Below the pieces are notes generated by a model. That model had not been told where the DNA came from and ran no database searches. It saw only the letters and a list, made by a program, of their open reading frames with translations. DNA of 64,000 nucleotides from Escherichia coli. Its GTDB lineage: Bacteria; Pseudomonadota; Gammaproteobacteria; Enterobacterales; Enterobacteriaceae. Every line of letters starts with the position of its first letter. Position 1 is the first letter of the stretch. Of this stretch, positions 4,335 through 48,322 are shown one piece after another. The position numbers were made by a program, and so were the translations under genes. Location: NCBI RefSeq assembly GCF_003334765.1, contig NZ_QOWT01000002.1. One strand, 5' to 3'.

Positions 4335-5296
4335 GCGGCGCTCGATTACACACGCTGCTGCCTGAATTAACCACGCGTCAGTCGGTGATGGTCGTCGGCG
4401 CGGCGGTCATTGACGTGATCGCCGACGCTTATGCCCTCCCCTGGCGTGGGTGCGATATCGAACTGAAACAGCAGAGCGTTAACGTTGGCGGCTGCGCACT
4501 GAATATTGCCGTGGCGTTAAAGCGCCTCGGCATCGAAGCGGGTAATGCCTTGCCGCTCGGTCAGGGCGTGTGGGCGGAGATTATTCGCAACCGGATGGCA
4601 AAAGAGGGCTTAATCAGCCTGATCGATAACGCCGAAGGTGATAACGGCTGGTGTCTGGCGCTGGTTGAGCCGGATGGCGAACGCACTTTTATGTCATTCA
4701 GCGGTGTTGAAAATCAGTGGAATCGCCAGTGGCTGGCGCGATTAACCGTTGCGCCTGGCAGCCTGCTCTATTTTTCCGGTTATCAACTGGCCTCGCCCTG
4801 CGGCGAATTGTTAGTGGAATGGCTGGAAGAGCTGCAAGACGTGACGCCGTTTATCGATTTTGGCCCACGTATTGGCGATATCCCGGATGCATTACTGGCG
4901 CGGATCATGGCCTGTCGACCTTTAGTGTCGCTCAATCGTCAAGAGGCTGAGATTGCCGCCGAACGTTTTGCTTTATCCGCAGAGATAACAACACTTGGCA
5001 AGCAATGGCAGGAGAAATTTGCCGCGCCGTTGATCGTTCGTCTCGATAAAGAAGGCGCATGGTATTTCAGCAACGACGCTTCTGGCTGCATTCCGGCATT
5101 TCCAACGCAAGTTGTCGACACCATTGGGGCGGGCGACAGTCATGCCGGTGGCGTACTTGCCGGGCTGGCCTCTGGTCTGCCACTGGCGGATGCCGTATTA
5201 CTGGGCAATGCAGTGGCGTCGTGGGTTGTCGGGCATCGGGGCGGTGATTGTGCGCCAACGCGCGAGGAACTACTCCTCGCACACAAAAACGTATAG
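4331..5296 (+). CDS. yegV: PfkB-family sugar/nucleoside kinase
   Basis: 321-aa ORF overlapping the yegU stop by 4 nt; C-terminal DTIGAGDSHAGG motif typical of the ribokinase/PfkB family. Confidence 0.85.
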   Translation: MSGARLHTLLPELTTRQSVMVVGAAVIDVIADAYALPWRGCDIELKQQSVNVGGCALNIAVALKRLGIEAGNALPLGQGVWAEIIRNRMAKEGLISLIDNAEGDNGWCLALVEPDGERTFMSFSGVENQWNRQWLARLTVAPGSLLYFSGYQLASPCGELLVEWLEELQDVTPFIDFGPRIGDIPDALLARIMACRPLVSLNRQEAEIAAERFALSAEITTLGKQWQEKFAAPLIVRLDKEGAWYFSNDASGCIPAFPTQVVDTIGAGDSHAGGVLAGLASGLPLADAVLLGNAVASWVVGHRGGDCAPTREELLLAHKNV

Positions 5297-6016
5297 ATCG
5301 CTGCGACAGTGGCTAATGCTGTACTCAATAGGCCGTTGCTGTTGGTCAAGCGCCACTTGCTTGATCACCAGCACCGGTATTTTGCTATCTAACTGAATAT
5401 GTGACTGAAACTCGGCATCCGGCATCCGGGCGCTAACGCGGGAACGCGTACGTTGTGGGTAAATGTGCTGGCTGCGGAAATAGTCATAAAGTGAAATCCC
5501 GATGGCATCAACATCATGAATTAAATGCGCCGGAACCCACGATTCCTCAATCGATACCGCATCTTCATCGACATAGCGAATACGCTTAAGCAAAAAGACA
5601 TCACTTCCTGCTTCGACCGCCAGCTGCTGCGCGACTTCTTCGGGACATTTCACGACACGCTTGTTAACCCATAGCGTATCGGGCTTTTTCCCGCGCAATA
5701 CCACCTGCTGAGAAAAACCTCGCGCTTCTTTCAACGAGTATTCGAAGATGTTGTTGATCTGCGTGCCGTAACCGCGCGAACGCGTCACCACACCCTCTTC
5801 TTCCAGCGCCTGCATCGCCTTGCGCACCGTAATGCGCGAAACGCCGGTTAACTGACTTAAATCACGCTCACCGGGCAAAATATTGCCATGCTCCAGCACC
5901 CCGCTGCGCACGGCATTTTTTACCGTTTCGGCAAACTTAATATAAAGCGGCGTGTTATCCGCCGCTAAAATACGCTCGTTCAGTTGGGCAATCAGCTGGG
6001 TATGCGCTTGTTCCAT
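5270..6016 (-). CDS. yegW: GntR/HutC-family transcriptional regulator
   Basis: 248-aa ORF; N-terminal winged-helix segment (LPGERDLSQLTGVSRITVRKAMQALEEEGVV) plus UTRA-like C-terminus. Confidence 0.88.
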   Translation of the reverse strand: MEQAHTQLIAQLNERILAADNTPLYIKFAETVKNAVRSGVLEHGNILPGERDLSQLTGVSRITVRKAMQALEEEGVVTRSRGYGTQINNIFEYSLKEARGFSQQVVLRGKKPDTLWVNKRVVKCPEEVAQQLAVEAGSDVFLLKRIRYVDEDAVSIEESWVPAHLIHDVDAIGISLYDYFRSQHIYPQRTRSRVSARMPDAEFQSHIQLDSKIPVLVIKQVALDQQQRPIEYSISHCRSDLYVFVCEE

Positions 6017-6067
6017 TTGTCTTTTTCCTGCCGGGGAGTCTGGTGGGAGTATATCACTGCTTCTTAT

Positions 6068-6886
6068 TTAAGGCGTTTCTTTAATCCCATCAACGAATGC
6101 CTGCAACTCCTCCACCGTGCCATTAAATACATTAAAATCCACCGGACCATTGATGCCATCTACCTGTCCACGGTCGGAATGCTGCCAGAAGCGCCAGGCC
6201 ATTCCGTCATTGTCCGGACGACGTTGATAGTAGTGAGCCACCCACCACGGATATTCATTGAAATAGCCCGCCAGATTGGTGTGATAAAAAACGGCTCCTG
6301 AGTAAATAATCGGCTTTTTCCCCGTACTTTTTTCGACCATTTTTAGCCACTGACTTACCCGCTTGCGTAATTCTTTTGCCGATAATTTTCCCCGTTCTTC
6401 TACGTCCAGCACGGCAGGGAAATCGCCTTGTGAGAAATCCACCGTTTGCAGAAATAATCTCGCCTGAACTGAAGCGGATACCGACGGGGAGAAATAATGA
6501 TACGCCCCACGCAGCAGGCCATTTTCGCGGCTTAGTTGCCAGTTACGCGAAAAATAGGGGTCCACCAGCTTTTCGCCTTCCGTCGCCTTAATAAAAGCAA
6601 ACTGTAAGCGGATACCGTTGTCGCGCATTTTTGCCACCCGCTGCCAGTCGATCCGCTCCTGCCAGCGCGAAACATCTATTCCGTGAATGGTGTAACTGGC
6701 AGGAATGCGAATAGCGAAAGATTTAACCGGGCGATAACCGTAGAAGTGGATGTAGTCTGTAATCTGAACTGCTGTCGAATAGAAAAAATTCACCGTCTGA
6801 CGCGGATAAATTGCAACGATGGAAATTAGCCCAAGAGCGCATAATAGAGAGGTGAGTTTTTTTCGACTGGTAATTCTTAGCTGCAT
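6068..6886 (-). CDS. yegX: Glycoside hydrolase family 25 (lysozyme-like muramidase), N-terminal signal/anchor
   Basis: ORF 6068..6895; start set at internal Met (MQLRITSRKK...); GH25-like YHGIDVSRWQ and DYIHFYGY motifs. Confidence 0.8.
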   Translation of the reverse strand: MQLRITSRKKLTSLLCALGLISIVAIYPRQTVNFFYSTAVQITDYIHFYGYRPVKSFAIRIPASYTIHGIDVSRWQERIDWQRVAKMRDNGIRLQFAFIKATEGEKLVDPYFSRNWQLSRENGLLRGAYHYFSPSVSASVQARLFLQTVDFSQGDFPAVLDVEERGKLSAKELRKRVSQWLKMVEKSTGKKPIIYSGAVFYHTNLAGYFNEYPWWVAHYYQRRPDNDGMAWRFWQHSDRGQVDGINGPVDFNVFNGTVEELQAFVDGIKETP

Positions 6887-6950
6887 TGGTTTCATCCCTG
6901 AATGTCAGTGCCAAAGGCTGACAATAACCAAAGCAGCTATAGTACGGTGC

Positions 6951-7751
6951 TCACCACCAGGCGTGGAAGTGGTGAACCGGACCAATACCGTGACCAACTT
7001 CCAGCGTGTCGGCCTGGGCTAACGCCGATGAAAGCCAGCTTTTTGCCTCCTGTACGGTGTCAGCCCAGTTTGTATGGCGCGGGCGTAGTGCAGCCAACGC
7101 CGCAGAGAGTGTACAACCAGTGCCGTGGGTGTTTTTGGTCATAATGCGCGGTGCGGTAAACCGTTGTTCACCCTCGCGGGTAAACAGCCAGTCCGGGCTT
7201 TGCTCATCATCCAGATGACCACCTTTCATTAGCACTGCGCCACAGCCCATCGCCAACAGCGATCGCCCTTGTTCCAGCATTTCCTGTTCGGTGCGCGCGT
7301 GTGGCGCGTCGAGCAAGGCGGCAGCTTCGGGCAAGTTTGGCGTTATTAATGAAACCTGTGGCAATAATCGACTGCGCAGCGTAGCAACCGCCGAAGGTGA
7401 AAGCAGCGGGTCGCCGCTTTTTGCCAGCATAACGGTGTCGAGTACCACGTTTTGGATCTGATAACGTTGCAACCGTTCTGCCACCGCTTCAACAATATCG
7501 GTTTCCGCCAGCATACCGATTTTAGTGGTATCGATTCGCACATCGCTGAACACCGAATCGAGCTGGGCGGCGACAAAATCAGGCTCAATGCGATACACCG
7601 ACTGTACGCCACGGGTATTTTGCGCCACCAGTGCAGTAATAACTGAGCAACCATAAGCGCCAAGTGCCGAGAAGGTTTTAAGATCGGCCTGAATCCCCGC
7701 ACCACCACTCGGATCAGTACCGGCAATCGTCAGAGCGTTAATTCGTTTCAT
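6951..7751 (-). CDS. thiD: Hydroxymethylpyrimidine/phosphomethylpyrimidine kinase
   Basis: 266-aa ORF; [27 protein letters not shown]... recognised as ThiD; overlaps the thiM stop by 4 nt. Confidence 0.92.
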
Positions 7752-8536
7752 GCCTGCACCTCCTGCGTCAATTGCCAGAGCGCATCAAGGAAATGTGGAA
7801 CAAAACTGCCTGGTCCCTCGCTTCTGGCGACTGCGCGTTCTCCGGCTTGTTTCATCCAGTGACAGGCAGATGCGACATTTTCCAGCGTATCGCCTGGTAA
7901 CGCACAGCAGGCAGCGACAACCGCCGATAATGCACAGCCAGTTCCTACCACTTTGGTCATTAACGGATCACCACCGTGAATACCAATGATACGATGTCCA
8001 TCGGTAACATAATCCATCTCGCCAGTGACCACGACGATTGCGCCAGTTTCCCGTGCCAGTGTTTGTGCAGCGGGTATCGCGTTAGCTGCGGCGTCAGTGG
8101 TATCCACTCCCCGTCCGCCATTAGCAATGCCAGCTAATGCCATGATTTCCGAAGCATTACCACGTATCGCTGCCGGTTTAAAAGATAAAAGTTCATGACA
8201 AAAATGGCGGCGATAATCGAGCGCACCCACCGCTACTGGATCAAGCGTCCAGGGTGTTTGAGAGCTTTTTGCTTGCTCAACGGCAGCACGCATCGCCTGA
8301 GCGCGTGGCTGCGTCAGTGTGCCAACGTTAATCAACAAGGCACTGGCGATAGCCGCAAACTGACTGGCCTCTTCGGTTTCGATAACCATCGCTGGCGATG
8401 CACCGAGCGCCAGCAAGGTATTGGCGGTAAAGGTTTGCACCACATCATTGGTCATGCAGTGCACAAGAGGGGAATGTTGGTGAAAAAGGTGTAACGCGTG
8501 CGCAGATTGCGCTGAACCCAGCAGGTCGACTTGCAT
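7748..8536 (-). CDS. thiM: Hydroxyethylthiazole kinase
   Basis: 262-aa ORF ([33 protein letters not shown]...) recognised as ThiM; first gene of thiMD. Confidence 0.92.
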
Positions 8537-8544
8537 AGTTTGCT

Positions 8545-8680
8545 CCTGCCATAACGTGAAGAAGCAATGACCTGGTGGTCCGTGACTTCCCTACGCTGGC
8601 ATTATCCAGATCAGGTGATACGGGTATTTCTCAGCCTTCACGCAGAAGGGCACCCCGAGTCGTTTGGTTGCGATGATAAA
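8545..8680 (-). promoter_or_regulatory. TPP (thi-box) riboswitch in the thiM 5' leader
   Basis: Minus strand reads GGGGUGCCCUUCUGCGUGAAGGCUGAGAAAUACCCGUAUCACCUGAUCUGGAUAAUGCCAGCGUAGGGAAGUCACG, the classic E. coli thiM TPP aptamer with the CUGAGA core, immediately upstream of the thiM AUG. Confidence 0.88.
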
Positions 8681-8758
8681 TCGCAGAGGAGGATGGTAAT
8701 GTCCAGCGCACGCGTTGTAAACGAGGAAAAACGGCAGTTTTACAATCGCGTTAATAAA

Positions 8759-9031
8759 TTATTTGATATATGAATCCAGCACCTTCAGAACGACATCCAG
8801 ATCTTCTTCACGTTTTAGCTCATCCCCCTGGTGAACGATGTGTTCCGTCAGATGACCTTTAATCACTTCCCGCATCAGACCGTTTACCGCGCCACGGATA
8901 GCAGCAATCTGTTGTAAAACTGCAGCGCATTCGTGCGGCTCGTCGAGCATTTTCTTGAGCGCCACGACCTGGCCCTGAATCTTACTGGCACGCGCTTTCA
9001 GTTTCTGTTTATCACGGATTGTATGAGACAT
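8759..9031 (-). CDS. rcnR: Ni/Co-responsive transcriptional repressor (CsoR/RcnR family)
   Basis: 90-aa [50 protein letters not shown]...; divergent from rcnA. Confidence 0.9.
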
Positions 9032-9079
9032 GGCAACACCTGGTTAACAAGAATATGAAAAATCATAGCACTATTAATC

Positions 9080-9114
9080 TACTGGGGGGTAGTATCAGGT
9101 ACTGGGGGGGAGTA
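9080..9114. promoter_or_regulatory. Tandem RcnR operator sites (TACT-G6/7-N-AGTA) in the rcnR-rcnA divergent promoter region
   Basis: tactggggggtagta (9080-9094) and tactgggggggagta (9100-9114) seen directly; match the published RcnR recognition motif. Confidence 0.8.
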
Positions 9115-9151
9115 GAATCAGATTGCCGAATTAATACTAAGAATTATTATC

Positions 9152-9976
9152 ATGACCGAATTTACAACTCTTCTTCAGCAAGGAAACGCCTGGTTCTTCA
9201 TCCCCAGCGCCATCTTACTTGGTGCGCTTCATGGCCTGGAACCAGGGCACTCAAAAACGATGATGGCGGCGTTTATCATCGCCATCAAAGGCACCATTAA
9301 ACAAGCGGTGATGCTCGGACTGGCAGCAACTATTTCGCATACCGCAGTGGTCTGGTTAATTGCCTTTGGCGGGATGGTGATCAGCAAGCTCTTTACTGCT
9401 CAATCAGCAGAACCGTGGCTCCAGCTGATTTCCGCAGTGATCATTATTAGCACCGCGTTCTGGATGTTCTGGCGTACCTGGCGCGGCGAACGCAACTGGC
9501 TGGAGAATATGCACGGGCATGATTATGAGCATCATCATCACGATCACGAACATCACCACGACCATGGACATCATCACCATCACGAACATGGCGAGTATCA
9601 GGATGCCCATGCACGAGCCCATGCCAATGACATTAAACGACGCTTTGATGGTAGAGAGGTCACCAACTGGCAAATTTTGTTATTTGGCTTAACCGGTGGC
9701 CTTATCCCCTGCCCGGCAGCAATTACCGTGCTGTTGATATGCATTCAGTTGAAAGCCCTGACACTGGGCGCAACACTGGTCGTCAGTTTCAGCATTGGCC
9801 TGGCGTTAACGCTTGTCACCGTAGGCGTTGGCGCAGCAATCAGCGTTCAGCAGGTCGCAAAACGCTGGAGCGGATTTAACACTCTCGCTAAACGCGCCCC
9901 CTATTTTTCCAGTCTGTTGATTGGCTTAGTCGGTGTGTATATGGGCGTACATGGCTTCATGGGCATAATGCGATAA
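9152..9976 (+). CDS. rcnA: Nickel/cobalt efflux permease with histidine-rich cytoplasmic loop
   Basis: 274-aa ORF; multi-TM; His-rich segment HGHDYEHHHHDHEHHHDHGHHHHHEHGEY. Confidence 0.9.
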   Translation: MTEFTTLLQQGNAWFFIPSAILLGALHGLEPGHSKTMMAAFIIAIKGTIKQAVMLGLAATISHTAVVWLIAFGGMVISKLFTAQSAEPWLQLISAVIIISTAFWMFWRTWRGERNWLENMHGHDYEHHHHDHEHHHDHGHHHHHEHGEYQDAHARAHANDIKRRFDGREVTNWQILLFGLTGGLIPCPAAITVLLICIQLKALTLGATLVVSFSIGLALTLVTVGVGAAISVQQVAKRWSGFNTLAKRAPYFSSLLIGLVGVYMGVHGFMGIMR

Positions 9977-10194
9977 CTCAATCCTTTAGGCTTGCATGTT
10001 ATCTTCAGCCCAGGATGATTCTTAAATCAGCTATTTCCGCTGACTCTCTGCTCGCTAAGGATGCTTTTAGGGCATCCTTTCATTTACACTTTTTACGAAA
10101 TCATGGGATCACTAACAAAATATCGCTTGTCAGTTATATTGTATGGCAGGAAAGATATGCGACTGATATTACAGATCCCCAAAGTGGAGAGTTT

Positions 10195-10533
10195 ATGACC
10201 ATTAAAAATAAGATGTTGCTGGGTGCGCTTTTGCTGGTTACCAGTGCCGCCTGGGCCGCACCAGCCACCGCGGGTTCGACCAATACCTCGGGAATTTCTA
10301 AGTATGAGTTAAGTAGTTTCATTGCTGACTTTAAGCATTTCAAACCAGGGGACACCGTACCAGAAATGTACCGTACCGATGAGTACAACATTAAGCAGTG
10401 GCAGTTGCGTAACCTGCCCGCGCCTGATGCCGGGACGCACTGGACCTATATGGGTGGCGCGTACGTGTTGATCAGCGACACCGACGGTAAAATCATTAAA
10501 GCCTACGACGGTGAGATTTTTTATCATCGCTAA
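10195..10533 (+). CDS. rcnB: Periplasmic Ni/Co homeostasis protein RcnB (YohN)
   Basis: ORF 10015..10533; start moved to internal ATG giving MTIKNKMLLGALLLVTSAAWA (signal peptide), about 112 aa. Confidence 0.82.
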   Translation: MTIKNKMLLGALLLVTSAAWAAPATAGSTNTSGISKYELSSFIADFKHFKPGDTVPEMYRTDEYNIKQWQLRNLPAPDAGTHWTYMGGAYVLISDTDGKIIKAYDGEIFYHR

Positions 10534-17534: not shown

Positions 17535-19568
17535 ATGACTCAAGTCGCGAAGAAAATTCTGGTGACGTGCGCACTGCCGTACGCTAACGGCTCAATCCAC
17601 CTCGGCCATATGCTGGAGCACATCCAGGCTGATGTCTGGGTCCGTTACCAGCGAATGCGCGGCCACGAGGTCAACTTCATCTGCGCCGACGATGCCCACG
17701 GTACACCGATCATGCTGAAAGCTCAGCAGCTTGGTATCACCCCGGAGCAGATGATTGGCGAAATGAGTCAGGAGCATCAGACTGATTTCGCAGGCTTTAA
17801 CATCAGCTATGACAACTATCACTCGACGCACAGCGAAGAGAACCGCCAGTTGTCAGAACTTATCTACTCTCGCCTGAAAGAGAACGGTTTTATTAAAAAC
17901 CGCACCATCTCTCAGCTGTACGATCCGGAAAAAGGCATGTTCCTGCCGGACCGTTTTGTGAAAGGCACCTGCCCGAAATGTAAATCCCCGGATCAATACG
18001 GCGATAACTGCGAAGTCTGCGGCGCGACCTACAGCCCGACTGAATTGATCGAGCCGAAATCGGTGGTTTCTGGCGCTACGCCGGTAATGCGTGATTCTGA
18101 ACACTTCTTCTTTGATCTGCCCTCTTTCAGCGAAATGTTGCAGGCATGGACCCGCAGCGGTGCGTTGCAGGAGCAGGTGGCAAATAAAATGCAGGAGTGG
18201 TTTGAATCCGGCCTGCAACAGTGGGATATCTCCCGCGACGCGCCATACTTTGGTTTTGAAATTCCGAACGCGCCGGGCAAATATTTCTACGTCTGGCTGG
18301 ACGCACCGATTGGCTACATGGGTTCTTTCAAGAATCTGTGCGACAAGCGCGGCGACAGCGTAAGCTTCGATGAATACTGGAAGAAAGACTCCACCGCCGA
18401 GCTGTACCACTTCATCGGTAAAGATATCGTTTACTTCCACAGCCTGTTCTGGCCTGCCATGCTGGAAGGCAGCAACTTCCGCAAGCCGACCAACCTGTTT
18501 GTTCATGGCTATGTGACGGTGAACGGCGCGAAGATGTCCAAGTCTCGCGGCACCTTTATTAAAGCCAGCACCTGGCTGAATCATTTTGACGCTGACAGCC
18601 TGCGTTACTACTACACTGCGAAACTCTCTTCGCGCATTGATGATATCGATCTCAACCTGGAGGATTTCGTTCAGCGCGTGAATGCCGATATCGTTAACAA
18701 AGTGGTTAACCTGGCCTCCCGTAACGCGGGCTTTATCAACAAACGTTTTGACGGCGTGCTGGCAAACGAACTGGCTGACCCGCAGTTGTACAAAACCTTC
18801 ACTGATGCCGCTGAAGTGATTGGTGAAGCGTGGGAAAGCCGTGAATTTGGTAAAGCTGTGCGCGAAATCATGGCGCTGGCTGATCTGGCTAACCGCTATG
18901 TCGATGAACAGGCTCCGTGGGTAGTCGCAAAACAGGAAGGTCGCGATGCTGACCTGCAGGCGATTTGCTCAATGGGCATCAACCTGTTCCGCGTGCTGAT
19001 GACTTACCTGAAGCCGGTACTGCCGAAACTGACCGAGCGTGCAGAAGCCTTCCTCAATACGGAACTGACCTGGGATGGTATCCAGCAACCGCTGCTGGGC
19101 CACAAAGTGAATCCGTTCAAGGCGCTGTATAACCGCATCGATATGAAACAGGTTGAAGCTCTGGTGGAAGCCTCTAAAGAAGAAGTGAAAGCAGCTGCCG
19201 CGCCAGTTACTGGCCCACTGGCAGATGATCCGATTCAGGAAACCATCACCTTTGACGACTTCGCCAAAGTTGACCTGCGCGTAGCGCTGATCGAAAACGC
19301 AGAGTTTGTTGAAGGTTCTGACAAACTGCTGCGCCTGACACTGGATCTCGGCGGTGAAAAACGCAATGTCTTCTCCGGTATTCGTTCTGCCTACCCGGAT
19401 CCGCAGGCACTGATTGGTCGTCACACCATTATGGTGGCTAACCTGGCACCACGTAAAATGCGCTTTGGAATCTCCGAAGGCATGGTGATGGCTGCCGGTC
19501 CAGGCGGGAAAGATATCTTCCTGCTAAGCCCGGATGCTGGTGCTAAACCGGGTCATCAGGTGAAATAA
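17535..19568 (+). CDS. metG: Methionyl-tRNA synthetase
   Basis: ORF 17526..19568; [29 protein letters not shown] (HIGH motif), KMSKS motif, zinc knuckle CPKC...CEVCG. Confidence 0.95.
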
Positions 19569-19577
19569 TCCCCCTTC

Positions 19578-19609
19578 AAGGCGCTGCATCGACAGCGCCT
19601 TTTCTTTAT
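19578..19609 (+). terminator. Intrinsic terminator after metG
   Basis: AAGGCGCTG-catcga-CAGCGCCTT stem followed by TTCTTTAT. Confidence 0.6.
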
Positions 19610-19708
19610 AAATTCCTAAAGTTGTTTTCTTGCGATTTTGTCTCTCTCTAACCCGCATAAATACTGGTAGCATCTGCATTCAACTGGATAAAATTACAGG
19701 GATGCAGA

Positions 19709-22700
19709 ATGAGACACTTTATCTATCAGGACGAAAAATCACATAAATTCTGGGCGGTGGAGCAACAGGGAAACGAGTTGCATATCAGTTGGGGAAAAGT
19801 TGGCACCAAAGGGCAAAGTCAGATAAAAAGTTTTTCAGATGCTGCGGCAGCGGAAAAAGCGGAACTTAAGCTGATTGCGGAGAAGGTGAAGAAGGGGTAT
19901 GTGGAGCAAGCGAAGGATAATTCTTTGCAACCTTCCCAAACGGTAACGGGCTCTCTCAAGGTAGCGGACTTATCCACCATTATTCAGGAACAACCCTCTT
20001 TCGTAGCAGAAACCCGTGCGCCTGACAAAAATACAGATGCTGTTTTACCGTGGCTGGCGAAAGATATTGCTGTCGTTTTTCCGCCCGAAGTTGTACACAC
20101 CACGTTAAGTCATCGCCGCTTTCCCGGAGTTCCTGTTCAGCAAGCAGACAAATTGACCCAATTACGTCGCTTAGCCTGTAGTGTGTCGCAACGGGATAAT
20201 AAAACAGCCACATTTGACTTCAGCGCCTGTTCTTTAGAATGGCAAAACACCGTCGCCCAGGCGATCAGTCAGATCGACGGCCTGAAAACAACACAGTTAC
20301 CATCACCAGTAATGGCTGTACTCACGGCACTTGAAATGAAATGCACAAGATATAAAGTGCGTGAGGATGTTATGGATCAGATCGTCCAGGAAGGCGGTCT
20401 GGAATATGCTACTGATGTAATAATACACCTTCAACAGATTGATATTGAATGGGATTATGCGAATAATGTCATTATTATTCTGCCGTCTGGCATTGCACCT
20501 AGCTACTTGGAGCAATATTCCAGATTTGAATTACGCCTACGTAAACATTTATCACTGACGGAAGAGTCTCTCTGGCAAAAATGTGCACAAAAACTTATTG
20601 CCGCAATTCCACATATTCCAGAATGGCGGCAACCATTAATTGCTTTGTTATTACCCGAAAAACCAGAAATTGCACATGAAATTGCCCAGCGTCTACTGGG
20701 GCAAAAAAAATTACCCTCGCTTGAGTGGTTAAAAATAGTGGCGACTGATGAGCACATTCTTGCCTCATTAGAAAAATATCACGAACCATATGCCATTTTT
20801 GATGATTACTATTGTGGTGCGATATGGTCAGCCACCGTATTACAGGAGCAAGGTGTTGCAGCCCTGCCCCGATTTGCTCCCTATGCCGCAAGTGACTACT
20901 GCGCCGATGTGTTGCGTCATATCAATCATCCGTTCGCATTGACACTGCTTATACGTGTAGCCGGGCAAACTAAACGCTGTCACGATCGGATGACGAAAGC
21001 CATTGCTGCGTTCCCACATGCAGCAATGGCGGCACTGACGGAACTTCTTGGGCAAAAAGAAGAGAACAGTTGGCGCATTATGCTAATGACAATGCTTATC
21101 TCACAACCAGCACTGGCAGAACAGGTCATTCCCTGGCTCTCGACACCCGCAGTTGCCGTACTGAAATCATGCCAGCAACAACTGACACAGCCCTCAAACC
21201 ATGCCAGCGCCGATCTACTGCCAGCCGTAGTAGTCTCCCCTCCCTGGCTTTCGAAAAAGAAAAAATCGCCGATTCCGGTGCTGGATTTAGCGCCATTAGG
21301 CATTGAGCCAATCTGTTATCTGACAGAAGAAATCAGTAATCAACTTTTGGCGAAATATATCTGGTATTCAAAACACATCACGGTTAGCCATGAAGAAAGT
21401 ACTACCAACCTGTTGGCAAGGATGGGTTTTCAACGACGGATCGCTGGTACATATATTAAAGCTCCCGAAGCGGTAGTTGAGGCATGGCTAAATGAAGATT
21501 ATTCAACCTTACTAAGTGAATTTAAGGTGTTTCATTCACCTACCGGGCATTATTGGCAGTTGGGGATTTTGACAACATTGCCGCTGGAGAAAGCAGTAAA
21601 AGCATGGAATGCCCTTACCCTATCTCCACATACCGATACCGAATACTCCATGTTACATTTTGGACTCAAAGGGTTACCTGGGTTAGTAAACTCACTTGCA
21701 CGCTATCCACAAGAAGCCTTGCCCATCACGAATTACTTCGCAGCGAGTGAGCTGGCTCCTGCCGTCGCCCGTGCCTTCAACAAACTGAAAACGCTACGCG
21801 AAAACGCCCGTAGCTGGCTGTTGAAATACCCGGAACATGCCCTTACCGGCCTGCTGCCTGCGGCGCTCGGCAAAGCCGGTGAAGCACAGGATAACGCCCG
21901 CGCTGCCTTGCGTATGCTTACCGAAAACGGTCATCAGCCATTACTGCAAGAAATCGCCCGACGTTATAACCAGCCGGAAGTAACCGATGCGGTGAACGCT
22001 CTGCTTGCGCTCGATCCCTTAGATAATCACCCGACAAAAATCCCCACTCTTCCGGCCTTTTATCAGCCATCGCTCTGGACGCGCCCGGTATTAAAAGCAA
22101 ATGCCCAATCACTGCCAGATAGCGCCCTCCTCCACCTCGGTGAAATGCTCCGCTTCCCTCAGGAAGAGGCTCTGTATCCGGGATTATTGCAGGTGAAAGA
22201 CGTCTGTTCCGCCGACTCACTGGCGGGATTTGCCTGGGATCTGTTTACCGCCTGGCAGACCGCTGGCGCGCCGTCGAAAGAGAGTTGGGCGTTCACTGCG
22301 TTAGGCGTTCTCGGTAACGATGACACCGCCCGCAAACTGACGCCATTAATACGCGCCTGGCCTGGTGAATCCCAGCATAAACGCGCCACCGTTGGGTTGG
22401 ATATTCTCGCTGCTATCGGTAGTGATATCGCCCTTATGCAGCTTAACGGCATCGCCCAGAAACTGAAATTCAAAGCATTACAGGAGCGGGCAAAAGAAAA
22501 AATTGCCGACATTGCCGAGAGCCGCGAACTCACGGTGGCGGAGCTTGAAGATCGGTTAGCACCGGATCTCGGTCTGGATGATAACGGTTCGCTGCTGCTG
22601 GATTTTGGCCCACGGCAGTTCACCGTCAGCTTTGATGAAACCTTAAAACCGTTTGTGCGTGATGTTTCCGGCAGCCGCCTGAAAGACCTGCCCAAACCGA

Positions 22701-23503
22701 ACAAAAGCGATGATGAAACGCGGGCGAACGATGCGGTTAACCGCTACAAATTGCTGAAAAAAGATGCGCGTACCATCGCCGCCCAGCAGGTAGCAAGGCT
22801 GGAATCCGCCATGTGCCTGCGCCGCCGCTGGTCGCTGGAAAACTTCCAGCTCTTCCTGGTTGAGCATCCGCTGGTTCGTCACTTAACCCGCCGTCTGATT
22901 TGGGGCGTTTATAGCGCCGAAAACCAGCTACTGGCTTGCTTTCGCGTAGCAGAAGATAACAGCTCCAGCACCGCTGACGATGATCTTTTCACCCTGCCGG
23001 AAGGCGATATCTCTATCGGCACTCCTCACGTTCTGGAAATATCACCAACGGATGCTGCCGCCTTTGGTCAGCTTTTTGCCGACTACGAACTGCTACCACC
23101 GTTCCGCCAGCTCGACCGTAACAGCTACGCCCTGACAGAAGCCGAGCGCAATGCCAGTGAACTGACCCGCTGGGCAGGCAGAAAATGCCCGAGTGGTCGG
23201 GTCATGGGGCTGGCGAATAAAGGCTGGATAAAGGGCGAACCACAGGATGGAGGCTGGATCGGATGGATGATCAAACCTTTGGGTCGCTGGTCGTTAATCA
23301 TGGAAATCGATGAAGGCTTTGCGGTAGGCATGTCGCCAGCCGAACTCAGCGCTGAGCAGCTCTTAAGCAAGCTGTGGCTATGGGAAGGCAAAGCAGAAAG
23401 ATATGGCTGGGGGAGTAATTCAACACAGGAAGCGCAGTTCTCCGTAATCGATGCCATCACCGCCAGCGAGCTAATTAACGATATTGAAGCCCTGTTTGAA
23501 TAA
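19709..23503 (+). CDS. molR: MolR: N-terminal WGR domain fused to a large YehI-like (DUF4132-type) body; intact 1264-aa form
   Basis: Single uninterrupted ORF; N-terminus MRHFIYQDEKSHKFWAVEQQGNELHISWGKVGTKGQ has the WGR signature; the remainder aligns by eye with YehI. Confidence 0.85.
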   Translation: MRHFIYQDEKSHKFWAVEQQGNELHISWGKVGTKGQSQIKSFSDAAAAEKAELKLIAEKVKKGYVEQAKDNSLQPSQTVTGSLKVADLSTIIQEQPSFVAETRAPDKNTDAVLPWLAKDIAVVFPPEVVHTTLSHRRFPGVPVQQADKLTQLRRLACSVSQRDNKTATFDFSACSLEWQNTVAQAISQIDGLKTTQLPSPVMAVLTALEMKCTRYKVREDVMDQIVQEGGLEYATDVIIHLQQIDIEWDYANNVIIILPSGIAPSYLEQYSRFELRLRKHLSLTEESLWQKCAQKLIAAIPHIPEWRQPLIALLLPEKPEIAHEIAQRLLGQKKLPSLEWLKIVATDEHILASLEKYHEPYAIFDDYYCGAIWSATVLQEQGVAALPRFAPYAASDYCADVLRHINHPFALTLLIRVAGQTKRCHDRMTKAIAAFPHAAMAALTELLGQKEENSWRIMLMTMLISQPALAEQVIPWLSTPAVAVLKSCQQQLTQPSNHASADLLPAVVVSPPWLSKKKKSPIPVLDLAPLGIEPICYLTEEISNQLLAKYIWYSKHITVSHEESTTNLLARMGFQRRIAGTYIKAPEAVVEAWLNEDYSTLLSEFKVFHSPTGHYWQLGILTTLPLEKAVKAWNALTLSPHTDTEYSMLHFGLKGLPGLVNSLARYPQEALPITNYFAASELAPAVARAFNKLKTLRENARSWLLKYPEHALTGLLPAALGKAGEAQDNARAALRMLTENGHQPLLQEIARRYNQPEVTDAVNALLALDPLDNHPTKIPTLPAFYQPSLWTRPVLKANAQSLPDSALLHLGEMLRFPQEEALYPGLLQVKDVCSADSLAGFAWDLFTAWQTAGAPSKESWAFTALGVLGNDDTARKLTPLIRAWPGESQHKRATVGLDILAAIGSDIALMQLNGIAQKLKFKALQERAKEKIADIAESRELTVAELEDRLAPDLGLDDNGSLLLDFGPRQFTVSFDETLKPFVRDVSGSRLKDLPKPNKSDDETRANDAVNRYKLLKKDARTIAAQQVARLESAMCLRRRWSLENFQLFLVEHPLVRHLTRRLIWGVYSAENQLLACFRVAEDNSSSTADDDLFTLPEGDISIGTPHVLEISPTDAAAFGQLFADYELLPPFRQLDRNSYALTEAERNASELTRWAGRKCPSGRVMGLANKGWIKGEPQDGGWIGWMIKPLGRWSLIMEIDEGFAVGMSPAELSAEQLLSKLWLWEGKAERYGWGSNSTQEAQFSVIDAITASELINDIEALFE

Positions 23504-23512
23504 GGAAAGAGC

Positions 23513-26500
23513 ATGGACAAGGAATTACCGTGGCTGGCGGATAACGCCCAACTGGAACTGAAATATAAAAAAGGCAAAACGCCGCTCAGTCATCGTCGCT
23601 GGCCGGGCGAACCAGTGTCCGTTATCACTGGAAGTCTCATCCAGACATTGGGTGATGAATTGCTACAAAAAGCTGAGAAGAAAAAAAACATTGTCTGGCG
23701 TTATGAGAATTTTTCACTGGAGTGGCAGTCCGCCATCACGCAGGCCATCAACTTGATCGGCGAACACAAACCCTCAATCCCGGCCCGGACAATGGCGGCG
23801 CTAGCCTGTATCGCGCAAAATGACAGCCAACAGTTGCTCGACGAAATCGTCCAACAAGAGGGGCTGGAATATGCGACTGAGGTGGTGATTGCACGCCAGT
23901 TTATTGCGCGGTGTTATGAGAGTGATCCTCTGGTAGTGACATTGCAGTATCAGGACGAGGATTATGGCTATGGTTATCGCTCAGAAACCTATAACGAATT
24001 CGATCTCCGACTGCGTAAGCATCTCTCTCTGGCAGAGGAAAGCTGCTGGCAGCGTTGCGCCGACAAACTCATTGCCGCACTACCAGGAATAACCAAAGTT
24101 CGCCGCCCTTTTATTGCGCTGATCCTCCCGGAAAAACCAGAAATAGCCAATGAGTTGGTAGGCCTTGAATGCCCGCGAACTCATTTTCATTCTAAGGAGT
24201 GGTTAAAAGTTGTTGCTAATGACCCCACAGCGGTGAGAAAACTCGAACACTACTGGAGCCAGGATATATTTAGCGATCGAGAAGCCAGCTACATGTCGCA
24301 TGAAAACCACTTCGGCTACGCGGCCTGCGCCGCCCTTTTGCGCGAACAAGGACTGGCAGCCATTCCGCGCCTCGCGATGTATGCCCATAAAGAAGATTGC
24401 GGCAGTCTGCTGGTACAAATTAACCATCCGCAAGTCATCCGCACCTTGCTACTGGTGGCTGATAAAAACAAACCCAGCCTGCAACGTGTAGCTAAATACC
24501 ATAAAAACTTCCCCCATGCGACGCTCGCCGCACTGGCAGAACTGCTGGCGTTAACAGAACCACCAGCCCGCCCTGGTTATCCAATCATCGAAGACAAAAA
24601 GCTGCCTGCACAGCAAAAAGCACGCGATGAATACTGGCGTACGCTGTTACAAACGCTGATGGCATCGCAGCCACAACTGGCAGCAGAAGTGATGCCGTGG
24701 TTAAGTACTCAACCCCAGTCAGTGCTGAAGAGTTATTTATCGGCACCGCCCAAACCGGTTATTGATGGCACCGATAACAGCAATCTGCCAGAAATCCTCG
24801 TTTCACCACCGTGGCGTAGTAAGAAAAAAATGACAGCTCCACGTCTTGATTTGGCACCGCTCGAATTAACTCCGCAAGTTTACTGGCAACCAGGCGAACA
24901 AGAGAGGCTTGCCGCCACTGAGCCTGCCCGTTATTTCAGCACGGAATCTCTTGCGCAACGCATGGAACAAAAAAGTGGACGAGTTGTATTACAGGAACTG
25001 GGTTTTGGGGATGATGTATGGCTGTTTCTGAATTATATACTCCCCGGAAAACTGGATGCTGCACGCAATTCACTCTTTGTTCAGTGGCATTACTACCAGG
25101 GGCGGGTTGAAGAGATCCTGAATGGCTGGAACTCCCCGGAAGCACAATTAGCAGAACAGGCGCTCCGCAGCGGTCACATAGAAGCGTTAATTAACATATG
25201 GGAAAATGACAACTACTCACATTATCGTCCGGAAAAGAGTGTCTGGAACCTGTATTTATTGGCACAGTTGCCGCGTGAGATGGCTTTGACCTTCTGGCTG
25301 CGTATCAATGAGAAAAAGCATCTGTTCGCGGGTGAGGACTATTTTCTCAGTATCCTCGGATTGGATGCGCTACCAGGTCTGCTGTTGGCTTTTTCACATC
25401 GTCCAAAAGAAACATTTCCGTTAATTTTAAATTTTGGCGCAACAGAACTGGCGCTGCCTGTTGCCCACGTCTGGCGACGTTTCGCGGCGCAGCGTGATCT
25501 GGCTCGCCAGTGGATTTTACAATGGCCGGAACATACGGCTAGTGCACTTATCCCTCTTGTCTTTACCAAACCCAGCGATAATAGCGAAGCCGCATTACTT
25601 GCCCTGCGTTTACTGTACGAACAGGGACATGGCGAATTGCTACAAACCGTGGCAAACCGCTGGCAGCGTACAGATGTATGGTCTGCCCTGGAGCAGTTGC
25701 TTAAACAGGATCCAATGGACATTTACCCGGCACGCATTCCAAAAGCCCCTGATTTCTGGCATCCGGCAATGTGGTCCAGGCCTCGACTTATCACTAATAA
25801 TCAGCCTGTTACCGGTGACGCTCTGGAAATTATCGGCGAAATGCTGCGCTTTACCCAGGGGGGACGTTTTTATAGCGGGCTGGAACAACTGAAAACGTTC
25901 TGCCAGCCACAAACGCTGGCAGCTTTTGCCTGGGATCTCTTCACTGCGTGGCAACAAGCTGGTGCCCCCGCAAAAGACAACTGGGCATTTCTGGCGTTAA
26001 GTCTCTTTGGTGACGAAAGCACGGCACGGGATCTGACGACACAGATCCTCGCCTGGCCACAAGAAGGCAAATCTGCCCGTGCTGTCAGCGGCCTGAACAT
26101 CCTTACCCTGATGAATAATGATATGGCGCTGATACAGCTGCATCATATATCGCAACGGGCTAAATCCCGCCCCTTACGTGATAACGCGGCGGAATTTCTT
26201 CAGGTGGTCGCAGAAAATCGCGGGCTAAGCCAGGAAGAGCTAGCGGACAGATTAGTCCCAACCCTGGGCCTTGATGATCCGCAGGCGTTGAGTTTTGATT
26301 TTGGTCCCCGGCAGTTTACCGTTCGCTTCGATGAAAACCTCAACCCGGTTATCTTTGATCAGCAAAACGTTCGCCAGAAAAGCGTTCCCCGTTTGCGCGC
26401 CGATGACGATCAACTGAAAGCGCCCGAGGCACTGACCCGACTAAAAGGGCTAAAAAAAGATGCTACTCAGGTGAGCAAAAACCTGCTCCCGCGTCTTGAA

Positions 26501-27145
26501 GCTGCCCTACGTACCACCCGACGCTGGTCGCTGGCAGATTTTCATTCTCTGTTTGTTAATCATCCCTTTACCCGTCTGGTTACCCAGCGATTAATATGGG
26601 GGGGTTATCCGGCAAATGAACCGCGTCGTTTACTCAACGCCTTTCGTGTGGCCGCAGAGGGGGAGTTCTGCAATGCGCAAGATGAGCCAATTGACCTGCC
26701 TGCGGACGCTCTGATTGGCATTGCCCACCCGTTAGAAATGGCAGTAGAAATGCGCAGTGAATTTGCACAGCTTTTTGCCGATTACGAAATTATGCCGCCT
26801 TTTCGCCAGTTGTCGCGCCGCACGGTGCTGCTCACACCTGACGAGTCAACCAGTAACAGCCTGACTCGCTGGGAAGGTAAATCCGCTACCGTTGGGCAAC
26901 TTATGGGAATGCGATACAAAGGCTGGGAGTCAGGCTATGAGGACACATTTGTCTATGACCTGGGCGAGTACCGGCTGGTCCTTAAGTTTTCACCCGGTTT
27001 TAACCACTACAATGTTGATAGCAAAGCGTTAATGAGCTGCCGTTCTCTTCGAGTGTACCGTGACAATAAATCCGTCACTTTTGCCGAACTTGATGTGTTT
27101 GATTTGAGTGAGGCGTTAAGCGCACCTGACGTCATTTTCCATTAA
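23513..27145 (+). CDS. yehI: YehI, large DUF4132-family protein, paralogue of the MolR body (no WGR domain)
   Basis: 1210-aa ORF starting 9 nt after the molR stop with RBS aggaaaga; multiple blocks conserved with MolR. Confidence 0.85.
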   Translation: MDKELPWLADNAQLELKYKKGKTPLSHRRWPGEPVSVITGSLIQTLGDELLQKAEKKKNIVWRYENFSLEWQSAITQAINLIGEHKPSIPARTMAALACIAQNDSQQLLDEIVQQEGLEYATEVVIARQFIARCYESDPLVVTLQYQDEDYGYGYRSETYNEFDLRLRKHLSLAEESCWQRCADKLIAALPGITKVRRPFIALILPEKPEIANELVGLECPRTHFHSKEWLKVVANDPTAVRKLEHYWSQDIFSDREASYMSHENHFGYAACAALLREQGLAAIPRLAMYAHKEDCGSLLVQINHPQVIRTLLLVADKNKPSLQRVAKYHKNFPHATLAALAELLALTEPPARPGYPIIEDKKLPAQQKARDEYWRTLLQTLMASQPQLAAEVMPWLSTQPQSVLKSYLSAPPKPVIDGTDNSNLPEILVSPPWRSKKKMTAPRLDLAPLELTPQVYWQPGEQERLAATEPARYFSTESLAQRMEQKSGRVVLQELGFGDDVWLFLNYILPGKLDAARNSLFVQWHYYQGRVEEILNGWNSPEAQLAEQALRSGHIEALINIWENDNYSHYRPEKSVWNLYLLAQLPREMALTFWLRINEKKHLFAGEDYFLSILGLDALPGLLLAFSHRPKETFPLILNFGATELALPVAHVWRRFAAQRDLARQWILQWPEHTASALIPLVFTKPSDNSEAALLALRLLYEQGHGELLQTVANRWQRTDVWSALEQLLKQDPMDIYPARIPKAPDFWHPAMWSRPRLITNNQPVTGDALEIIGEMLRFTQGGRFYSGLEQLKTFCQPQTLAAFAWDLFTAWQQAGAPAKDNWAFLALSLFGDESTARDLTTQILAWPQEGKSARAVSGLNILTLMNNDMALIQLHHISQRAKSRPLRDNAAEFLQVVAENRGLSQEELADRLVPTLGLDDPQALSFDFGPRQFTVRFDENLNPVIFDQQNVRQKSVPRLRADDDQLKAPEALTRLKGLKKDATQVSKNLLPRLEAALRTTRRWSLADFHSLFVNHPFTRLVTQRLIWGGYPANEPRRLLNAFRVAAEGEFCNAQDEPIDLPADALIGIAHPLEMAVEMRSEFAQLFADYEIMPPFRQLSRRTVLLTPDESTSNSLTRWEGKSATVGQLMGMRYKGWESGYEDTFVYDLGEYRLVLKFSPGFNHYNVDSKALMSCRSLRVYRDNKSVTFAELDVFDLSEALSAPDVIFH

Positions 27146-27205
27146 AACACAGCGGGCAGTGATGCGACTGCCCGTTATCTACACGACTTACCAGCGGGGA
27201 AAGCG

Positions 27206-27523
27206 ATGATCGTGCAAAAAGAGCTGGTTGCTATTTACGATTATGAGGTCCCTGTACCTGAAGATCCGTTTTCCTTCAGACTTGAGATCCATAAATGCCC
27301 TGAATTATTTACAGGTTCCGTCTATCGACTGGAGCGATTCCGGCTACATCCAACATTTCATCAACGTGATCGAGAAGATGCTGACCCGCTAATAAATGAT
27401 GCGTTGATTTATATAAGAGATGAGTGTAATGATGAGCGGAAATTACGAGGTGAATCACCTGAAACTGTAATAGCAATTTTTAATCGTGAACTACAGAATA
27501 TATTCAACCAAGAAATAGAATAA
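27206..27523 (+). CDS. yehK: Small protein of unknown function
   Basis: 105-aa ORF MIVQKELVAIYDYEVPVPEDPF...; lies between yehI and a terminator. Confidence 0.7.
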   Translation: MIVQKELVAIYDYEVPVPEDPFSFRLEIHKCPELFTGSVYRLERFRLHPTFHQRDREDADPLINDALIYIRDECNDERKLRGESPETVIAIFNRELQNIFNQEIE

Positions 27524-27692
27524 TATACTCTAAATAATTCAAATTGGTCCGATCCGGCGCAACGTCCCAATGGCCTGGATTATAAATCTCATTATCTTAA
27601 TTGCAACGGGGTCCAGCCGTGGTTATAATTCGTTCGTTGGAACACGATGTTGCACAGGCTGCGGTGTTGGGCCTGAAAATAGTAAATAAAAG

Positions 27693-27719
27693 AACCTGCC
27701 TCACCAGCAGGTTTTTTTA
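27693..27719 (+). terminator. Intrinsic terminator after yehK
   Basis: CCTGC-ctcacca-GCAGG stem followed by TTTTTTT. Confidence 0.6.
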
Positions 27720-27829
27720 TTTACTGTGATCTGCTTTCCAGATATTTTCCGCTCAAACAACTAATGCGCCAAACATTTATTGCGCGTAAAATATCGTTTA
27801 TTTCATTAATACATTTCAGGGATGAATAT

Positions 27830-28918
27830 ATGTCACCGCAGAATAATCATCTGCAGCGTCCGCCTGCCGCTGTGTTATACGCCGATGAACTGGCAAAATT
27901 AAAACAAAATGATAACGCACCTTGCCCGCCCGGTTGGCAGTTAAGTTTGCCTGCGGCCCGTGCTTTTATCCTTGGCGATAGCGCGCAAAATATTAGCCGT
28001 AAAGTGGTGATTAGTCCCTCTGCTGTCGAACGTATGTTAGTCACTCTTGCCACCGGGCGCGGTTTGATGTTGGTGGGGGAACCTGGCACCGCAAAATCTC
28101 TCCTGTCTGAATTACTGGCAACCGCTATTAGCGGCGATGCCGGGTTAACCATCCAGGGCGGGGCATCTACCACCGAAGATCAAATCAAGTATGGCTGGAA
28201 CTACGCCCTGCTTATCAATCATGGTCCGTCAACGGAAGCGCTGGTCCCTGCCCCGCTTTATCAGGGAATGCGCGACGGCAAAATCGTCCGTTTTGAAGAG
28301 ATAACGCGTACACCGCTGGAAGTGCAAGACTGTCTGTTAGGTATGCTTTCTGACCGGGTTATGACGGTGCCGGAACTCACCAGTGAAGCCAGTCAGCTCT
28401 ATGCGCGAGAAGGCTTTAATATTATTGCCACTGCCAATACCCGCGATCGCGGCGTCAATGAGATGAGTGCCGCGCTAAAGCGTCGCTTCGATTTTGAAAC
28501 TGTCTTTCCGATTATGGATTTCGCCCAGGAGCTGGAACTGGTCGCCAGTGCTTCGGCGCGTTTGCTGGCCCATAGCGGTATTCCGCATAAAGTGCCTGAC
28601 GCGGTACTGGAGTTACTGGTCCGCACCTTCCGCGATCTGCGTGCCAACGGCGAAAAGAAAACGTCAATGGATACCCTGACGGCAATTATGTCCACCGCTG
28701 AAGCCGTGAACGTGGCCCACGCAGTGGGCGTCCGCGCCTGGTTTTTAGCGAATCGCGCAGGTGAGCCAGCCGACCTGGTGGACTGCATTGCCGGAACCAT
28801 CGTCAAAGATAATGAAGAAGATCGCGCTCGTCTGCGCCGTTACTTCGAACAGCGTGTCGCCACACATAAAGAAGCTCACTGGCAGGCTTATTATCAAGCC
28901 CGCCACCGCCTGCCGTGA
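27830..28918 (+). CDS. yehL: MoxR-like AAA+ ATPase
   Basis: ORF 27764..28918; start set at MSPQNNHLQRP (362 aa); Walker A GEPGTAKS; Walker B/sensor region RFEEITRTPLEVQDCLLGML. Confidence 0.88.
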   Translation: MSPQNNHLQRPPAAVLYADELAKLKQNDNAPCPPGWQLSLPAARAFILGDSAQNISRKVVISPSAVERMLVTLATGRGLMLVGEPGTAKSLLSELLATAISGDAGLTIQGGASTTEDQIKYGWNYALLINHGPSTEALVPAPLYQGMRDGKIVRFEEITRTPLEVQDCLLGMLSDRVMTVPELTSEASQLYAREGFNIIATANTRDRGVNEMSAALKRRFDFETVFPIMDFAQELELVASASARLLAHSGIPHKVPDAVLELLVRTFRDLRANGEKKTSMDTLTAIMSTAEAVNVAHAVGVRAWFLANRAGEPADLVDCIAGTIVKDNEEDRARLRRYFEQRVATHKEAHWQAYYQARHRLP

Positions 28919-48149: not shown

Positions 48150-48322
48150 GATGAGCATTCAGATAGTGGTTCACGCGCACGGGTTGCGCACCGCCGGAGT
48201 AAGGATTTACTGAGGCTAGCGACGCCATCATAACGAGCAAAAAGTGCGATCGTCAAAGGAGAATCGTGAGGAAATGCTGCATTGCTGACATTTACGCCAG
48301 CAATGCAACGTCAAAGAACTTT

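Follow-up and report, generated by a model that had tools for sequence, protein, structure and literature searches.

The yehH locus

We analyzed a stretch of 64,000 nucleotides (nt) of Escherichia coli DNA, hereafter the window, to whose full length all coordinates refer, and focused on yehH, a gene with the legacy name molR. No other gene separates it from metG, and it opens a cluster in which the tandem paralogs yehH and yehI are followed by yehK and then by yehL, yehM, yehP and yehQ. All seven yeh genes are uninterrupted in the window and lie as follows:

19709..23503, plus strand: yehH (molR), intact coding sequence with an ATG start and 1264 codons, followed by TAA
23513..27145, plus strand: yehI, a DUF4132 paralog without WGR domain, whose start lies 9 nt past the yehH stop
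27206..27523, plus strand: yehK, a small open reading frame (ORF) present in Escherichia loci only
27830..28918, plus strand: yehL, a MoxR-type AAA+ ATPase (AAA_5)
28929..31208, plus strand: yehM, a DUF5682 protein
31201..32337, plus strand: yehP, a VWA protein (VWA_CoxE/VWA_2)
32334..34337, plus strand: yehQ, a SWIM zinc-finger protein, intact in the window

A preliminary description of this DNA had reported an uninterrupted frame over 3795 nt, and both the ORF list and the translation agree with it at exactly these coordinates. The translation of 19709-23503 has a single stop, the terminal TAA, and neither translation nor alignment revealed an overlooked frameshift. Simple arithmetic puts the chance of an open frame of 1264 codons at about (61/64)^1264 = 4e-27. 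The near-identical gene of strain VE-F10 (1 amino acid (aa) difference) bears the RefSeq name "DUF4132 domain-containing protein". We are nearly certain that the ORF is an intact, ancestral-type allele of E. coli yehH. It is also reasonable to regard its product as likely functional, because it retains all residues that are invariant in six E. coli paralogs or alleles and in 62 aligned family members, because the ratio of nonsynonymous to synonymous rates (dN/dS) against a close allele is ~0.15, and because all seven genes of the cluster are open.

The lesions of the K-12 gene

The closest known counterpart is K-12 molR_1/_2/_3 (b2115-b2117; yehG/yehH), which occupies the same locus between metG and yehI. 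The preliminary description gave this gene as a fragmented pseudogene, and the alignment that it called for bears this out, with two breaks, at codons 275 and 949. The homologous interval of MG1655 measures 3796 nt and is annotated by RefSeq/PGAP as a pseudogene ("frameshifted; internal stop"). Pairwise alignment with the window gene gave nine differences, or 99.8% nucleotide identity across the gene. The stop results from T824G (window 20532), which turns codon 275 (20531-20533) from TTA into TGA, and the frameshift from one additional G in the GG run at window 22554-22555 (GGG in K-12), at codon 949, whereas the window gene reads through all 1264 codons. The differences further include three missense changes, T43A (W15R), A146C (E49A) and A448C (T150P), and three silent ones. 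As a result of the stop and the frameshift, the K-12 gene is split into ORFs of 274, 645 and 333 aa, which are molR_1, molR_2 and molR_3. The K-12 disruption is already known, being recorded in RefSeq and in the literature: a 2013 paper has "molR (yehH) ... disrupted in K12" (PMC3950696).

The affected tryptophan W15 (TGG, 19751-19753) is invariant in all other alleles compared, including a paralog that is only 48% identical, and is Arg in K-12; W15R looks like further damage on an already dead haplotype. Since O145:H28 RM13516 has all eight K-12 substitutions without the frameshift, the dead haplotype is a natural one and the frameshift is an extra lesion in the K-12 line. The K-12 nonsense haplotype (W15R, T150P, L275stop) is, in other words, a natural allele circulating in wild E. 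coli. K-12 yehQ is also a pseudogene, in which a G-to-T change at window 34179 places a stop at codon 615 of 667, so that K-12 is naturally mutant in two yeh genes (yehH and yehQ). We therefore concur with the preliminary description that this strain is a better background than K-12: the seven genes are open here, and yehH and yehQ are broken there.

Two side observations concern these K-12 genes. Nucleotide difference from K-12 is ~4% in yehQ (plus a 3-nt indel) and only 0.2% in yehH, a contrast that points to a recombination mosaic inside the cluster. Further, deleting the K-12 molR_1 fragment, the equivalent of window 19709-20533, together with lepA causes synthetic slow growth, the doubling time rising from 22 to 33 min (PMC4245954); this may reflect residual activity of the 274-aa WGR fragment or an effect of the cassette on metG next to it.

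Frequency of the intact gene in E. coli

We searched 5426 complete E. coli genomes by megablast and found a gene at the yehH position in 5420 of them. Alleles were counted with 61-nt probes, for which the identity band of at least 99% amounts to an exact match. The TTA allele of the window is present in 1058 of the 5426 genomes and the K-12 TGA allele in 706, including many wild isolates (human, chicken, O145). The K-12 +G allele occurs in 352 genomes, and among the 60 matches listed nearly all are K-12 laboratory derivatives.

A survey of intactness, also suggested in the preliminary description, was run on 26 of these genomes, taken at even steps down the megablast ranking. ORFs were re-derived for the first batch (L001-L017) and the remaining genomes were scored from their RefSeq annotation. 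The yehH-position gene is intact in the majority (18/26) and disrupted in 8. The disruptions comprise an IS1 insertion, two cases of the TGA allele, the two lesions of K-12, a frameshift/deletion, an IS26 truncation beside blaCTX-M-15, the O157:H7 frameshift and an IS1-associated deletion that runs from yehH through the 5' end of yehL. Disruption of yehH thus recurs by independent events within E. coli. Full-length 1264-aa proteins form clusters of 7,215 and 21,639 member sequences (~29,000 together). An intact gene is common and ordinary in E. coli, and this strain does not stand out in having one.

Other genes of the cluster are affected as well. Of the 18 sampled genomes that keep yehH intact, 5 (L004, L006, L007, L088, L089) have a yehI annotated with a frameshift, a stop or a truncation, and yehK is frameshifted in AR_0086. 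In O157:H7 (F7386), both yehH-type paralogs present there (A and B, see below) and yehM are pseudogenes, the last with an internal stop. Individual genes of the cluster have decayed independently of one another, and in different lineages.

In A1.S1.126 (L015, 1-1452), yehH is truncated at its 5' end, with IS26 and blaCTX-M-15 immediately before it. This arrangement matches a published insertion, the blaCTX-M-15 transposon TnMB1860, which was described in the "metG/DUF4132/yeh region" of 184 isolates of sublineage L1a of sequence type 131 (ST131) (PMC9334617).

Polymorphism and paralogs within E. coli

Protein identity at the yehH position ranges from 99.9% down to 72.7%, and the N-terminal half of the O157:H7 protein is only ~49% identical. 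In addition, many strains have a third tandem paralog (A), which lies between metG and the gene of yehH type, here called B. The variable part of A is found in ~1644 of the 5426 genomes and falls into three identity classes. A and B are 48% identical, and both have the WGR and DUF4132 domains. Such three-paralog loci (metG-A-B-yehI) occur, for example, in L020, with genes at 2677-6477 and 6490-10251, and also in L021, L009, L012 and L014. Because the first ~100 residues of the window protein are closer to A and the remainder is B-like, the sequence suggests that recombination between A and B deleted one copy.

Two segments of the gene differ in their variability:

20006..22108, plus strand: hypervariable region, residues ~100-800, a mosaic of old allelic segments that contains codon 275
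22109..23500, plus strand: conserved C-terminal module, residues 801-1264, made of the solenoid end and an alpha/beta region and holding the codon-949 GG run

Against paralog B of AR_0086, residues ~100-800 have 45-77% aa identity per 100-column block, with saturated dS. Sliding Nei-Gojobori estimates against other allele classes give dN of 0.2-0.75 and saturated dS for the N-terminal two-thirds; the C-terminal module is 94-99% identical, with dN of 0.01-0.03 and dS of 0.1-0.4. We read the N-terminal two-thirds as a mosaic of very old alleles on which purifying selection acts, rather than as a product of recent positive selection.

Domain architecture of YehH

Searches against Pfam identified two domains in YehH and no other significant one:

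19724..19915, plus strand: WGR domain, residues 6-69, Pfam PF05406, E=5.3e-18, model positions 9-77 of 79, including W15
22670..23227, plus strand: DUF4132 domain, residues 988-1173, Pfam PF13569, E=9.7e-50, model positions 1-179 of 179

In PARPs, nucleic acid is bound by WGR, a small domain of the alpha+beta type. This domain is common to residues 6-69 of YehH, to PARP1-3 and to bacterial WGR proteins (PF05406, 2ra8). In contrast with the PARPs, the WGR of YehH is fused to a solenoid and DUF4132, and Pfam found no PARP catalytic or PARP_reg domain beside it. The sole sequence relative of YehH in the PDB is 2ra8, which aligns with the N-terminal WGR part (E=2e-17). The one NCBIfam match, far under the cutoff, was to the WGR part of an unrelated family from Leptospira. 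YehI is 37% identical to YehH over ~1180 residues, aligned from YehH residue 107 on; it has the same helical region and DUF4132 module but lacks the N-terminal WGR.

AlphaFold modelling of residues 620-1264 on an alignment of 62 sequences gave a very confident model, with a mean predicted local distance difference test score (pLDDT) of 94.9 and a predicted template modelling score (pTM) of 0.87. Helical repeats are stacked as far as residue ~950 in this model, and a mixed alpha/beta module comes after them. Fold searches with this model returned generic ARM/HEAT scaffold similarity for the helical part. Taken together, domain matches and model predict an architecture of WGR, a long ARM/HEAT-like helical solenoid and a DUF4132 alpha/beta module.

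The yeh cluster and its conservation across phyla

The family of YehH is large and uncharacterised. An exhaustive search that used residues 100-1264 as the query retrieved 5,933 representative clusters at E<=1e-3 (~5,900 clusters at 50% identity) and 2,615 at E<=1e-30, the best conserved part being residues ~620-1264. We examined 62 loci from species-representative genomes, which span Escherichia, Erwinia, Massilia/Duganella, Cupriavidus, Xanthomonadaceae, mycobacteria, Nocardia, Myxococcota, Planctomycetes, Chloroflexi and others. Homologs of YehL and YehM lie close to the DUF4132 gene(s) in 41 of the 62 loci, and in 34 YehP and YehQ homologs are there too. The 41 linked loci come from Gamma- and Betaproteobacteria, Myxococcota, Actinobacteria and Planctomycetes. 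With few exceptions (L046, L080 and L081), the cassette follows the DUF4132 gene(s) immediately, in the same orientation and with its gene order kept, often behind a tandem array of paralogs; many of the unlinked loci are short contigs or long paralog arrays. This linkage, tight and conserved across phyla, is the main evidence that YehH works with the MoxR, VWA and SWIM proteins.

The tandem arrangement of paralogs is also widespread: at least two DUF4132 genes, WGR-bearing and WGR-less mixed, occur within +/-10 kb in 27 of the 62 loci. Massilia spp. (L030, L035, L036, L044, L047 and L052) carry 5-7 WGR/DUF4132 paralogs in tandem on one strand within +/-10 kb, far more than the 2-3 copies of E. 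coli.

The window has an AAA_5 MoxR gene and a VWA gene in one cluster, as is typical of MoxR-VWA systems. The AAA+/VWA pairing of YehL (AAA_5) and YehP (VWA) is shared with RavA-ViaA, NorQ-NorD, CbbQ-CbbO and CoxD-CoxE. Seven subfamilies of MoxR ATPases have been distinguished, one of them named after YehL, and the group is regarded as remodelling enzymes of a chaperone-like kind that pair with VWA proteins (PMC3893208). The YehL subfamily differs from the other pairs in that it always comes with additional DUF5682 (YehM) and SWIM (YehQ) proteins and at least one WGR/DUF4132 protein, and it is not known to have a client. Sequence searches of the PDB gave midasin AAA_5 for YehL and nothing for YehM or YehQ. 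Our literature search found no paper linking WGR, SWIM and MoxR, and DUF4132 is rarely mentioned.

The 306-nt spacer between yehK and yehL contains an Rfam match to the OrzO-P type I antitoxin small RNA (window 27643-27718, plus strand, 101 bits for a gathering score of 60). No ZorO-like 29-aa toxin ORF is evident near it in the window, and the match may be an orphan or remnant copy. Other strains have a bigger yehK-yehL spacer that holds a 29-aa gene on the minus strand (L019, 18068-18157).

Upstream region and regulation

The region between metG and yehH contains the following elements:

19578..19601, plus strand: metG intrinsic terminator, a 9-pair stem (6 GC pairs) followed by a T-run, at the upstream end of the yehH regulatory region
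19602..19708, plus strand: yehH promoter/regulatory region, nearly invariant among strains
19682..19701, plus strand: LexA-type SOS box AACTGGATAAAATTACAGGG, CTG-N10-CAG with an AT-rich spacer, ending 8 nt before the ATG

The 143-nt upstream stretch has 0-3 differences in 13 strains, those with three paralogs included, and that of K-12 is identical to the window, LexA-type box included. AACTGGATAAAATTACAGGG is the only CTG-N10-CAG box with an AT-rich spacer in 19500-28000 and is conserved in the 13 strains. In line with this, molR has been listed among the LexA-regulon genes with a known SOS box (PMC6590174; PMC11039860). The K-12 yehH promoter has been mapped, as has a BglJ-RcsB site that activates transcription (PMC3950696). 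We considered SOS control as a family-wide trait and dropped it, LexA-type and actinobacterial SOS boxes being unenriched upstream of 43 homologs. Because of this lack of enrichment outside E. coli, SOS control is probably a local Escherichia feature rather than part of the core logic of the system.

A proposed role for YehH

The explanation that we favour, with a probability of about 0.6, is that the window carries an intact yehH allele and that its product serves as a nucleic-acid-tethered adaptor for YehLMPQ. Its mechanistic part, in which such an SOS-inducible adaptor would act as set out below, is more tentative, and taken by itself we would sooner bet against it than for it. LexA would repress yehH via the box by the ATG and BglJ-RcsB can activate it, as reported for K-12, whose upstream region is that of the window; in E. 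coli, cleavage of LexA would switch the gene on. As its domains suggest, the WGR would tether YehH to a DNA or RNA structure, and the variable solenoid would offer a specific binding surface that selects the partner. The C-terminal DUF4132 module, judging from its conservation and from the synteny across phyla, would couple this complex to YehL, YehP, YehM and YehQ, a machine that might remodel or disassemble the bound complex using ATP.

Several observations weigh against this explanation. Disruption is frequent (8/26), so yehH is dispensable under many conditions. The strict motif CTGT-N8-ACAG has no match in the window, AACTGGATAAAATTACAGGG fitting the looser CTG-N10-CAG only, and in other taxa only 4 of 43 loci have a LexA-type box upstream of the homolog, for ~5.6 expected. 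Finally, fold searches with the 620-1264 model found no convincing solved structural relative of the DUF4132 module, and its docking role therefore rests on conservation and synteny.

The legacy annotation offers another explanation, namely that YehH/MolR is a transcription factor for molybdate uptake or metabolism. The name molR reportedly originates with Lee et al. 1990. CoxD/CoxE-type MoxR-VWA pairs mature a molybdenum- and copper-containing (Mo-Cu) enzyme, and YehP matches the VWA_CoxE family. Moreover, "MolR-like" transcription factors with a WGR DNA-binding domain figure in a paper of the Aravind laboratory (PMC7824862). However, Pfam and NCBIfam searches of YehH found no helix-turn-helix (HTH), Mop, TOBE or other molybdate-binding domain and no classical transcription factor domain. 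Besides, K-12, in which the phenotype was described, has a pseudogene, and a full-length product cannot explain a wild-type phenotype of K-12. The molybdate genes of Deinococcus are also not co-regulated with its WGR and DUF4132 genes (PMC8533742). We thus regard a molybdate function as highly improbable; the label "molybdate metabolism regulator", still found on some database entries, is without support since such domains are absent and the K-12 gene is a pseudogene. That yehH is a decaying relic without current function in E. coli, its frame here merely not yet hit, also seems improbable to us. This would fit the independent lesions in 8 of the 26 sampled genomes (nonsense, frameshift, IS1, IS26 and deletion), the disruption of yehI in 5 of 18 genomes with an intact yehH, the O157:H7 locus, where A, B and yehM are all pseudogenes, and the resistance transposon tolerated at the site in 184 ST131 isolates (PMC9334617). 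Yet dN/dS between intact alleles is ~0.15 with the invariant residues kept, the full-length clusters hold 7,215 and 21,639 sequences, and the family, with its 5,933 representative clusters, has a synteny conserved across phyla.

Two further explanations concern what the cluster does. YehH and YehI could be clients or scaffolds of a MoxR-VWA chaperone that assembles an unrelated complex or inserts a cofactor into it, in the manner of RavA-ViaA, NorQ-NorD and CbbQ-CbbO and without involvement of nucleic acid. In support of this, YehL typifies a subfamily (one of seven) of the MoxR proteins, which are regarded as VWA-paired maturation factors with a chaperone-like action (PMC3893208), the AAA_5 and VWA domains are confirmed in YehL and YehP, and ARM/HEAT solenoids are typical protein-protein scaffolds. 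But no conserved candidate client enzyme lies nearby, the only conserved partners being DUF4132 proteins, and the WGR and SWIM domains and the LexA control are left unexplained; we consider this explanation unlikely. The cluster might instead be a system of biological conflict, for example against phages, with the diversifying tandem WGR/DUF4132 paralogs as sensors and YehLMPQ as an ATP-driven executor. The extreme divergence of the N-terminal two-thirds within the species while the promoter is invariant would agree with such a role, as would the varying number of tandem paralogs (2-3 in E. coli, up to 7 in Massilia), the recurrent and independent loss of yehH and the type I antitoxin small RNA match inside the cluster. 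On the other hand, neither the seven Yeh proteins nor the product of the next ORF matched any defence-system model of PADLOC-DB 2.0 at E<=0.01, and domain searches of the cluster proteins detected no effector domain (nuclease, protease, TIR etc.). The site beside metG is fixed in 5420 of 5426 genomes, with no mobile island, and dN/dS is below 1 in the variable region, which points to old alleles under purifying selection. A conflict role is thus rather doubtful, and we retain the nucleic-acid-tethered adaptor as the preferred explanation.

Domains of the same two kinds are found under a DNA-damage response in Deinococcus radiodurans, where DR2173 (WGR) and DRA0166 (DUF4132) are strongly induced on DdrO depletion (PMC8533742). 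This DdrO/IrrE radiation-desiccation regulon parallels LexA control in E. coli but differs from it in its regulator, and WGR and DUF4132 are there on separate proteins and replicons. The Deinococcus induction is an independent hint of a link to DNA damage. In a broader proposal, YehLMPQ would be a conserved MoxR-VWA-SWIM remodelling machine whose target-recognition subunits, the WGR-solenoid-DUF4132 proteins (YehH, YehI and the third paralog), diversified long ago and are interchangeable. Machine and subunits would make up a previously unrecognised stress/conflict system in many phyla that is triggered by DNA damage in E. coli. We put this forward as a speculation with the odds well against it. 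Genetics would have missed such a system owing to the natural lesions of K-12 in both yehH and yehQ.

The practical consequence is real but small: yehH/molR or yehLMPQ should be studied in a strain like this one or in a repaired K-12, not in K-12 itself. Should the system turn out to act in DNA damage or conflict, it is the intact allele that would allow its study.

Other matches in the window

Over its right-hand 25 kb the window matches a range of unrelated isolates at 100% identity, ML35 and NCTC9100 among them. Apart from OrzO-P, Rfam matches in the window lie at 646-716, 59883-59960, 8571-8667 and 48154-48234, all on the minus strand, and consist of two naRNA4, a thiamine pyrophosphate (TPP) riboswitch and a Peptidase-S11 RNA motif.

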